The position numbers and the translations under genes are program-made. A DNA stretch of 44,897 nt, the filler included, from an uncultured Methanoregulaceae archaeon (GTDB lineage Archaea > Halobacteriota > Methanomicrobia > Methanomicrobiales > Methanospirillaceae), in the NCBI GenBank assembly GCA_964530035.1. It is 17 parts of 17 records of this genome, joined end to end, with 100 filler letters (N's around TTAATTAATTAA, not from the genome) between each part and the next. Parts side by side here need not be neighbours in the genome. Positions count along the whole stretch, not along the records: positions 29,888 to 32,475 come from CAZGXZ010000220.1; 16 more parts are not named here. One strand, written 5' to 3'. The notes beneath the pieces were generated by a model, which was not told the DNA's origin, did not search any database, and saw only the letters and a program-made list of their open reading frames with translations. This document shows, piece after piece, positions 29,788 to 44,897 of this stretch (position 1 is its first letter; each line of letters begins with the position of its first letter).

Positions 29788-29892
29788 NNNNNNNNNNNNN
29801 NNNNNNNNNNNNNNNNNNNNNNNNNNNNNNNTTAATTAATTAANNNNNNNNNNNNNNNNNNNNNNNNNNNNNNNNNNNNNNNNNNNNACCCA

Positions 29893-30319
29893 GGCGGTTG
29901 CACCGCCATCAATCGTTGTTACCACTTCTGACACCTTCGTTTCCAAGGGAGGTTTTCATGGAATCATGTCCTGGATCAGTGTCCCGTGCCAGTCACCGGG
30001 CATGCCGGTATGTCCATTTCTCCATGACATCCCAAGGCACAGTCTTCTCCCGGGCACTTCAGCCGGGAATCCCTGTCTGCCCGGGAACGGGACATGAGGC
30101 GGGTTTGTATCAGAGGGACAACCTTCACCATGCATCTCATCCACCATGAAATCATTGCCGTGCTGAGGCATGCCGGCAGGGAAAGGTGTGACAGGTGTGA
30201 TATGAACTGATCCCATGCCGCATACCCTGGAACGACCATGTTCCGTGTCCATGAAGCTGGCCTGGATACAGGGTCGGTGTCGTTCCAGCGGTTTGTGCAT
30301 CAGGGCTGTCCCTCTGATA
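29893..30319 (-). ncRNA. Candidate nitrogen-regulated structured RNA (sRNA or long 5' leader)
   Basis: Begins at the expected start site of a TATA + NrpR-operator promoter. Multiple nested stems, including a 16-bp closing stem whose only non-Watson-Crick pair is G-U on this strand. Confidence 0.5.
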
Positions 30320-30322
30320 GAA

Positions 30323-30347
30323 GGAAGTTATCTTCCATGCATATAAA
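30323..30347 (-). promoter_or_regulatory. Archaeal TATA box followed by an NrpR-type operator
   Basis: Minus strand reads AAGAATGTA-TTTATATG-CAT-GGAAGATAACTTCC. GGAA-N6-TTCC is at 30323-30336 and the TATA box at 30340-30347. Confidence 0.75.
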
Positions 30348-30896
30348 TACATTCTTATTAGACATAGCATTACGCGCCATTGAGGTCGTTTTCAGAGAGG
30401 AGGATCGACCGAAACACGGTCACCGCGGAACTGGCCCATGTCATGAATGATAAATAATAGAGAGAGGACCGGACAGGTCACAATAACCAACCCGCCACGT
30501 TCCGGCAGTTTGTCATCGGCTGACACACAGACGTGCCTTGTGGCCGCGACAAGCGGACACCTGGCCGACAGGGTCTCCAGGCGGCACAGAAATTCCAGTG
30601 GCTCCGCCGACGGGCAGTAGGAAGGAAGCAATGAATGAATACTTAAAAATATTATGCGTTCTGCAGTTCCTGACAAATAAATATTCAAAAAAATTATAGG
30701 AAAATTAAGATTATTTTAAAAAAATTTCATAGAATCAGAATTATCATGGTCATCTCCAGAAGAGGCGCCCACAATAAAAAAACCAGCAGCATGATAAATG
30801 GATTTATATCACAGGGCATGACACATTATTTCCACCTCTGGTCCCGGATTACAGGGGCAATCCCTTTCCGGCAGGACGTACAATTGCGTGGTTGAC

Positions 30897-31949
30897 ATGT
30901 GCGGGATAATAGGAGTCGTGGACCGCCGGAGAAAACCGATGGATGGTTCACAGATACAAAAAGCCCTCTCCCTGATGGACGAACGGGGGAGCGGTGAGGG
31001 TTCCGGGTATGTTGTGTACGGCGCATTTCCGGAGTACAGAGACTATTATGCCATTCACGTCTTCTTCGACAACATTCACCTGACAAAACCGGCCGTTGAC
31101 GAGGTGCTCTCGTCCTGGGGTGCGGTACGGCACGAAGAGGAGGTCCCGACCTACGATACCGGGAAGATCAAGAAGGTCCATACACCGTACCGGTATTTCT
31201 TCAAACCCGATACGAGTCTCATGCCGAGGAGCGCCACACCAGGCGACGATATCGTCACCCAGATCGTGATGAAGGTCAACACGACGATCCCGGGGGCCCT
31301 GGTGTACTCTTCGGGCAAGAACGTCGCGGTGTTCAAGGCATCGGGATGGCCCGAGGACGTCGCCGATTTCTACCGGATCGAGGACTACGAGGGGTACATC
31401 TGGCTCGGTCACAACCGCTACCCGACCAACACCCCCGGGTGGTGGGGAGGGGCCCACCCCTTCAACCTGCTCGACTGGTCCGTGGTCCACAACGGCGAGA
31501 TCACCTCCTACGGCACCAACATGCGCTATATCGAGTCGTTCGGGTACACCTGCACCATGTTCACGGACACCGAGGTCGTCGCATACCTCTTCGACCTCCT
31601 CATCCGGCAGCACAACCTCCCCCCGGAGATCGCCGTCCGGGCGCTCGCCCCTCCGTTCTGGGACGAGATCGAGCGGATGCCGGAAAAGGAACGCCTCCTC
31701 AACACAGCCCTCCGCCTCACCTACGGACCGGCAATGATGAACGGACCATTTGCCATCGTCGTCGCCAGCCATGACGGCATCGTCGGCTTCACCGACCGGA
31801 TAAAGCTCCGGCCCCTCGTTACCGGGACGAACGGAGACCGGCTCTACATCTCAAGCGAGGAGGCGGCGATCAGGACCTATGACCCGGAGGTCACCGGGAT
31901 CCAGATGCCAAGGGCCGGTGAGCCGGTCATAGGGCGGGTGATAGCATGA
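30897..31949 (+). CDS. Archaeal glutamate synthase, class II glutamine amidotransferase subunit
   Basis: N-terminal MCGIIG, GHNRYPTNT, AHPF, VHNGEI, TDTEV, DRIKLRP. Confidence 0.93.
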   Translation: MCGIIGVVDRRRKPMDGSQIQKALSLMDERGSGEGSGYVVYGAFPEYRDYYAIHVFFDNIHLTKPAVDEVLSSWGAVRHEEEVPTYDTGKIKKVHTPYRYFFKPDTSLMPRSATPGDDIVTQIVMKVNTTIPGALVYSSGKNVAVFKASGWPEDVADFYRIEDYEGYIWLGHNRYPTNTPGWWGGAHPFNLLDWSVVHNGEITSYGTNMRYIESFGYTCTMFTDTEVVAYLFDLLIRQHNLPPEIAVRALAPPFWDEIERMPEKERLLNTALRLTYGPAMMNGPFAIVVASHDGIVGFTDRIKLRPLVTGTNGDRLYISSEEAAIRTYDPEVTGIQMPRAGEPVIGRVIA

Positions 31950-32475
31950 GCATCGGTTCGGTCCCCATGAAGTACCGGGTCACCATCGACCGGGACCAGT
32001 GCATGCTCTGCGGGCGGTGCATCGAGAACTGTCCTTACGGGGTGTACCGGAAGGATGGGGAGCATATCAGGATCAACTCCCGCAACTGCGTCGCATGTCA
32101 TCGCTGCATCGCCATGTGCCCGAGGGACGCCATCTCCCTCGAAGAGAAACCGCAGGACTACCGCTCCCACCCGGTATGGACCCGCGAGGTCAGGGAGGCC
32201 ATCTACAACCAGGCACGGAGCGGGAAGATCATCCTCGCGGGAATGGGAAATGCCCTCCCCTACCCAAGCATCTTCGACAGGCTCGTCCTGGACGCCTGCC
32301 AGGTCACGAACCCGAGCATCGACCCCCTGCGGGAGCCGATGGAACTTCGGACCTACATCGGCAAGAAACCCAGGAAGCTCGAACTTTCACGGTCTCCTTC
32401 AGGCGACGTGGACCTGGCAACGACCCTTGCACCGAACCTCCAGTGTGAGACCCCCATCATGATCGGGCACATGAG
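31946..32475 (+). CDS. Archaeal glutamate synthase FMN subunit with N-terminal 2x[4Fe-4S] ferredoxin (3' truncated)
   Basis: CxxCxxCxxxCP twice, QVTNPSIDPLREP, TPIMIGHMS. ATGA overlap with the previous gene. Confidence 0.93.
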
Positions 32476-41404: not shown

Positions 41405-41476
41405 AGCCGTTGGAGGGAATTGAACCCTCGACCTGCTGATTACGAATCAGCCGCTATGCCGCTAAGACACAACTGC
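41405..41476 (-). tRNA. tRNA-Thr(CGT), with two stem mismatches
   Basis: Anticodon arm GCTGA-TTCGTAA-TCAGC, T-arm GAGGG-TTCAATT-CCCTC, acceptor GCAGTTG/CAACGGC. Confidence 0.88.
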
Positions 41477-44843: not shown

Positions 44844-44897
44844 GCGCCGATAGTGTAGTGGTTATCACTAGGCGTTGCCAACGCCTAAACCCGGGTT
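44844..44897 (+). tRNA. tRNA-Gly(GCC), truncated at window end
   Basis: GCGCCGA acceptor 5' strand, D-arm, AGGCG-TTGCCAA-CGCCT anticodon arm, start of T-arm CCGGGTT. Confidence 0.93.

Follow-up and report, generated by a model that had tools for sequence, protein, structure and literature searches.

An NrpR-type promoter that points away from two glutamate synthase genes raises the question of which RNA it produces: an undescribed small RNA of nitrogen starvation, as a sequence-only reading had proposed, or the beginning of a messenger RNA. The locus lies in the window, the 44,897-nt stretch analyzed here, which consists of short contigs strung together with N linkers. Its contig (CAZGXZ010000220.1, G000:C220) occupies positions 29888-32475 (2,588 bases); the linker at 29788-29887 adjoins the studied region, which sits left of the two plus-strand glutamate synthase genes (Table 1). 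Our analysis corrects the call from a new sRNA to an amt leader: the region is almost certainly a promoter followed by the 5' untranslated leader, about 393 nt long, of the amt mRNA of a Methanomicrobiales methanogen.

Table 1. Positions of the features at the amt leader locus, counted along the window.
Feature	Position	Strand	Basis or remark
TATA box TTTATATG of the amt promoter	30340..30347	-	relatives show this layout in front of amt
NrpR operator GGAAGATAACTTCC, 3 nt past the TATA box	30323..30336	strandless	consensus GGAA-N6-TTCC (PMC2723118, accessible part)
Predicted amt mRNA 5' leader, ~393 nt	29926..30318	-	start inferred from TATA spacing
P1 5' arm, starting at the predicted first base	30304..30319	-	15 nt after the operator identical in three genus members
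P1 3' arm, with CCUCUG core	30108..30123	-	the core closes P1 in leaders of g19 and g3 too, from a shorter distance
P2 hairpin, 10-bp stem 30279-30288/30227-30236	30227..30288	-	
C/U-rich tract CACCUGUCACACCUUUCC	30180..30197	-	can form 12 of 15 pairs with the amt ribosome-binding region 29923-29937
Orphan ORF of 114 codons that occupies the leader, with doubtful translation	29956..30300	-	
Shine-Dalgarno-like GAAGGUG, 6 nt ahead of the amt GTG	29932..29938	-	sequence
First 12 codons of Amt, an ammonium transporter truncated at the contig end	29888..29925	-	N-terminus matrix score
Second promoter-like block (TTTTTAAG ... CTTCCTTCCTACTG), GGAA half-site missing	30615..30649	-	retained by three genus members
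Glutamate synthase genes on the divergent side, for the GATase subunit and after it the truncated 4Fe-4S/FMN subunit	30888..32475	+	

In other methanogens, NrpR bound at its operator blocks transcription, and nitrogen limitation lifts this block. A sequence check placed the TATA box, the 3-nt gap and the operator exactly where they had been reported. The 2.36-Mb genome contains 90 GGAA-N6-TTCC sites, and a TATA-like word is adjacent in two of them; an operator with a TATA box directly upstream is beyond chance. NrpR is encoded in the same genome, with PF01995 (NRD-domain) matches on contigs C110 and C95 of G000, the C95 match being split by an N gap. Membership of the NrpR regulon is marked by an operator beside a TATA box, an encoded NrpR and a nitrogen gene downstream, here the start of Amt, and all three were found. 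The claim of an NrpR-type promoter was right; the minus-strand transcript from about 30318 also counts as right, its start being predicted from the TATA spacing. According to the accessible parts of the two papers, GGAA-N6-TTCC is established ahead of glnK-amtB in M. maripaludis (PMC2723118), and the same operator type precedes glnK-amtB in M. mazei (PMC11456600). These promoters likewise stand before an ammonium-transporter operon, whereas the gene order in the relatives studied here is amt, then glnK, and a leader of ~390 nt with a stem at its 5' end is not described in those parts of the two papers. The message made from the promoter studied here is probably amt-glnK.

The final 38 bases of the contig contain a GTG followed by V-T-T-I-D-G-G-A-T-A-W. 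Scored with a matrix built from 54 Amt N-termini, this start ranked first among 3,679,533 nine-residue windows of the genome (24.5 bits, against 15.0 for the runner-up). A search at the DNA level through 41 genomes gave matches in eight; the five matches outside the genus comprised the promoter alone, all five leading to amt. When the promoter pattern was searched first, 29 of 401 genomes matched and 30 loci were taken, from which G000, G001 and one duplicate site were removed; 22 of the 27 remaining sites lead to amt, and the other five have no AT-rich TATA upstream. The amt gene is present in 209 of 228 family genomes. The remainder of amt, glnK and glnA are missing from the 86%-complete assembly, as expected if these genes sit past the contig break. 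The fallback proposal of a leader to a nitrogen gene was therefore sound in idea, though the gene is amt rather than glnA and starts inside the window, at 29925; glnA past the contig edge was rejected, as amt is the gene there and G001 has glnA on a different contig. The supposed 6-bp RNA hairpin at 29893-29907 falls within the amt coding sequence.

Between promoter and amt no terminator-like site was detected, the longest U-run being 3, nor is there an inner AT-rich promoter in the leader, which has no A/T run of 7. Among 85 Amt N-terminus hits in relatives, 64 had an operator and a TATA-like word upstream, leaving 62 leaders after removal of two duplicates. Their median length is 208 nt, with at least 120 nt in 55 and at least 390 nt in six, in a sample that is skewed toward the top-scoring amt hits of genera g6 and g19 and in which some long leaders contain other genes and three were measured to the conserved domain. 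The promoter type leading to amt, the long leaders of relatives and the lack of a terminator together argue for a 5' leader of ~393 nt rather than a free sRNA. Long 5' UTRs with effects on stability and translation are reported for methanogens (M. mazei; CODH/ACS, mta) in the accessible part of PMC3600222. The present leader is likewise long, with a probable effect on stability or translation; in contrast to those cases, its 5' stem (P1, below) recurs across several genera, and no amt leader structure is named in that part of the source. The metatranscriptomes gave one unstranded contig of 229 nt (29935-30163, depth 2) from one RNA run, a weak signal that may be DNA; two further "RNA" runs were flagged as probably DNA. 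A contig of one strain also spans the stretch, with 626 additional bases.

Every stem arm of the earlier reading was located by sequence check, including the 16-bp pairing that we call P1, with its single G-U on the minus strand. The description of the RNA as highly structured held for P1, which is above chance, and not for the remainder. The segment 30100-30322 folds with z -4.5 on the minus strand (0/200 shuffles) and -3.2 on the plus strand; without P1 the value of this first domain falls to -1.16, so the folding signal is attributed to P1, and the 3' half reaches -1.23. In the ensemble, P1 and P2 have pairing probabilities of 0.99 and 0.96, and the three other listed stems, in approximate registers, 0.35, 0.10 and 0.08. 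Inverted repeats of at least 16 bp at 30-400 nt spacing occur 11 times in the entire 2.36-Mb genome, and the P1 arm scored z -5.3 against its own leader. P1 is quite likely under selection as an RNA structure. At L023, a hairpin lies at the P2 position with its register partly shifted.

Within the genus, two homologs of the leader end 66 and 94 nt past the operator, with the P1 partner region outside both; a metagenome scan for full-length genus homologs returned a single contig, ending 94 nt past the operator. The first 15 nt of the genus homologs are identical, while nucleotides 16-94 are 61-65% identical and gapless, a value lower than at fourfold sites of the neighboring gene (69-80%) but higher than in the spacer (44-60%). 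The leader body diverges faster than synonymous sites. Compared with the leaders of relatives, it gave a best local alignment of z 3.8 among ~55 tries; six profile HMMs built from those leaders did not match the window's leader, and the g19 covariance model R1 scored it at 9.0 bits (E 3.2), as against 67.6 bits for the held-out g19 locus L122. Beyond P1, none of these comparisons revealed a relationship between the leader body and the leaders of relatives, and this idea was rejected.

The leaders of relatives fall into at least four classes that do not match each other. In an alignment-free test for a start-proximal arm (p ≤ 0.05), 18 of 55 leaders passed, namely that of the window, 14 of 15 from genus g19 and three others, with the caveat that G-rich 5' arms find partners easily; 14 of these 18 P1-type leaders thus come from one genus. 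The arms pair best inside their own sequence group. Of 18 leaders opening with TTCTA[ACT]CA[GT], 16 pass the stem test, with partners ~70-200 nt away, and two have a partner ~180 nt off, as in the window. In the g19 leaders, P1 lies close to the start, a further hairpin sits inside it, and CACCUCUC is left unpaired. In their alignment (10 sequences, on which the structure itself was adjusted), 87% of cells are paired and both partners have changed in 7 of 22 pairs, a covariation score reached in 0 of 500 shuffles; such both-sided changes affect only 2 of the 13 P1 pairs. Examples of this compact P1/P2 element of ~90 nt with unpaired CACCUCUC are L047:1299-1390 and L058:2793-2887, and other g19 amt leaders have it too.

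In g6/g14, the leaders have the motif CCGGA-CUUYYYW-UCCGG, whose stem covaries at 5 of 10 pairs in an alignment of 14 of the 18 motif leaders. The loci are L028, L031-L034, L036, L037, L040, L041, L044, L048, L049, L051-L053, L015, L085 and L092. One side of the hairpin loop is anti-SD-like. This hairpin makes a stronger candidate element than the leader in the window. A looser palindrome occurs 5-8 times per genome, and the motif may accordingly be a DNA site. A conserved peptide behind the g6 motif was rejected, as the frames contain stops and share no start. The CCGGA leaders and a second g6 class have no P1-like 5' stem, which indicates that such a stem is dispensable for amt expression. 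The sequence-only reading had suggested collecting the region upstream of the glutamate synthase genes from relatives and testing it for covariation; among the relatives' amt leaders, those of g19 and g6/g14 did have covarying stems. Rfam gave no matches on 20 of the relatives' amt loci.

As an explanation of the whole, we slightly favor an amt leader in which P1 shields the 5' end and the rest is a ligand-blind spacer; whether 5'-end protection is the main job of P1 is, in our judgment, evenly balanced. NrpR on the operator would hold transcription off until nitrogen limitation releases repression. During transcription, P1 would then join the leading ~16 bases to a partner segment located ~190 nt further downstream; given the inferred start near 30318, P1 would begin at +1 and bury the 5' terminus of the mRNA after induction, guarding it against 5'-end-dependent decay. 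The remaining leader would serve as a fast-evolving, loosely folded spacer that senses no ligand. Protection is favored because the position of P1 recurs while the loop content turns over. According to the accessible part of PMC5867862, 5'-3' exoribonucleases occur in archaea.

Alternatively, the leader could be a cis-acting translational switch, in which the exposed anti-Shine-Dalgarno tract inside P1 swaps its partner to the ribosome-binding site (RBS) of amt (or glnK) and a protein or an sRNA sets the choice of fold. The duplex of the tract with the amt RBS is worth -16.4 kcal/mol, CACCUCUC in g19 leaders is largely unpaired (0.61-0.98) and fits glnK RBS words over 8 bp, the g6/g14 leaders retain their motif on a covarying stem, and sRNA154 works through an anti-RBS loop (PMC5867862, accessible part). 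However, the switched fold is 10 kcal/mol dearer and breaks P1, an anti-SD word fits any strong SD, and the leader classes match neither one another nor the leader of the window. Few leaders paired with their own RBS better than shuffles did (p 0.13 for the leader studied here, tested with an RBS segment 3 nt off the true start). Such a switch, its fold set by a protein or sRNA, is unlikely. More generally, amt mRNAs of Methanomicrobiales might carry undescribed post-transcriptional nitrogen elements, in which a stem scaffold presenting an anti-SD sequence would gate translation of amt/glnK in cis or, after cleavage, that of further nitrogen mRNAs in trans. Such a leader-encoded counterpart of sRNA154 would exist in several versions that share no sequence relationship (the leader of the window, g19, g6/g14); we consider this doubtful.

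The leader might also be mostly coding, with a young upstream ORF of 114 amino acids translated before amt. This ORF begins 23 nt past the operator and stops 30 nt short of amt, in the sole plus-sense frame that is open, without indels, in all three genus sequences, and an ATG replaces the preceding CTG in one strain. The frame also has the most synonymous changes (6/28, 6/20 and 4/14; p 0.10, 0.017 and 0.21), a weak signal, and a real upstream ORF family of ~95 amino acids exists ahead of other amt paralogs in g19. Against translation, the coding score is lower than that of 99.7% of genuine coding fragments, an open run of this length has a chance of 0.05, and searches of 5.8 billion and 1.84 billion proteins found one 99% copy and nothing further. 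The ORF has no match in Pfam or Atlas and is unlike the g19 ORFs, its first ATG is absent in L023 and G001, and its RBS-like word is buried within P1. It is probably noncoding, and a mostly coding leader is improbable.

The g19 ORF of ~95 amino acids contains Cys/His, lies between glnA and an amt paralog and is conserved without a Pfam match (L069:1149-1427, L070:1348-1638, L072:2749-3027, L077:1144-1428); its frame is seemingly broken in some genomes, and it is possibly a small Amt or GS regulator. At L029:1120-1443 and L083:531-947, amt leaders are filled by an ORF of 108 or 139 codons directly past the operator, with no Pfam match; the L083 frame is not open in L089.

A free or processed nitrogen-starvation sRNA, comprising the 215-nt P1 domain and acting in trans like sRNA154, would fit the NrpR promoter, the compact P1-closed domain and the exposed C/U-rich, anti-RBS-like tract, and it has a precedent in sRNA154 itself (accessible parts of PMC11456600 and PMC5867862). 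The Methanosarcina mazei RNA shares the nitrogen-limitation promoter and a loop-exposed anti-RBS-like sequence, yet it is a separate intergenic transcript that acts in trans, whereas the window RNA continues into amt without a terminator past P1, from a promoter type that serves amt; the two sequences were compared via Rfam alone. The Rfam search that had been proposed gave no match at gathering thresholds or up to E 10, the body is unconserved, and the sole contig from an RNA library, itself weak, covers the 3' half and not the P1 domain. An undescribed free-standing sRNA is thus very unlikely.

A metabolite riboswitch for glutamine or 2-oxoglutarate would agree with the 5' position ahead of a nitrogen gene, and glnA-motif RNAs (RF01739) also occupy 5' leaders of nitrogen genes, ammonium transporters of cyanobacteria among them (PMC2864571, accessible part). 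That motif, however, is cyanobacterial with a compact conserved core, and the window leader has no match to it. As for an expression platform, anti-SD pairing with the RBS is conceivable, though it does not exceed shuffles. As the body outpaces synonymous divergence in nucleotides 16-94 and matches neither Rfam nor the models of relatives, and no conserved aptamer or multi-stem core was found across the species of the family compared, a riboswitch-like leader is highly improbable. A MITE was rejected, since the element is single-copy and its inverted arm pair occurs only once in the genome.

The promoter kind and long leaders are known; the recurring 5'-end stem and the covarying leaders of relatives are modestly new. 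Searches of a largely open-access literature turned up no account of structured amt leaders from Methanomicrobiales; a 2026 intergenic-clustering preprint could list leaders of this kind in its supplements. The analysis brings to light family-wide amt leaders with covarying structure outside Rfam. Natural cis-regulatory RNAs of archaea are poorly known, and the g19 and g6/g14 leaders, being compact and testable, are candidates for a second level at which nitrogen genes are controlled, below that of NrpR. The window copy is the least tractable member because no full-length homolog was available.

Upstream of the amt promoter, the stretch 30350-30620 folds no better than shuffles (z 0.12). The second promoter-like block beyond it is possibly an additional upstream promoter; as relatives have glnA at that position, it may be a leftover or a constitutive promoter. 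On the plus strand, the 5' region of the glutamate synthase gene (30795-30897) shares ~89-98% of its bases within the genus, more than fourfold sites do, a conservation that is absent in other genera. Elsewhere in the window, two tRNA genes lie at 41405-41476 (minus strand) and 44844-44897 (plus strand).
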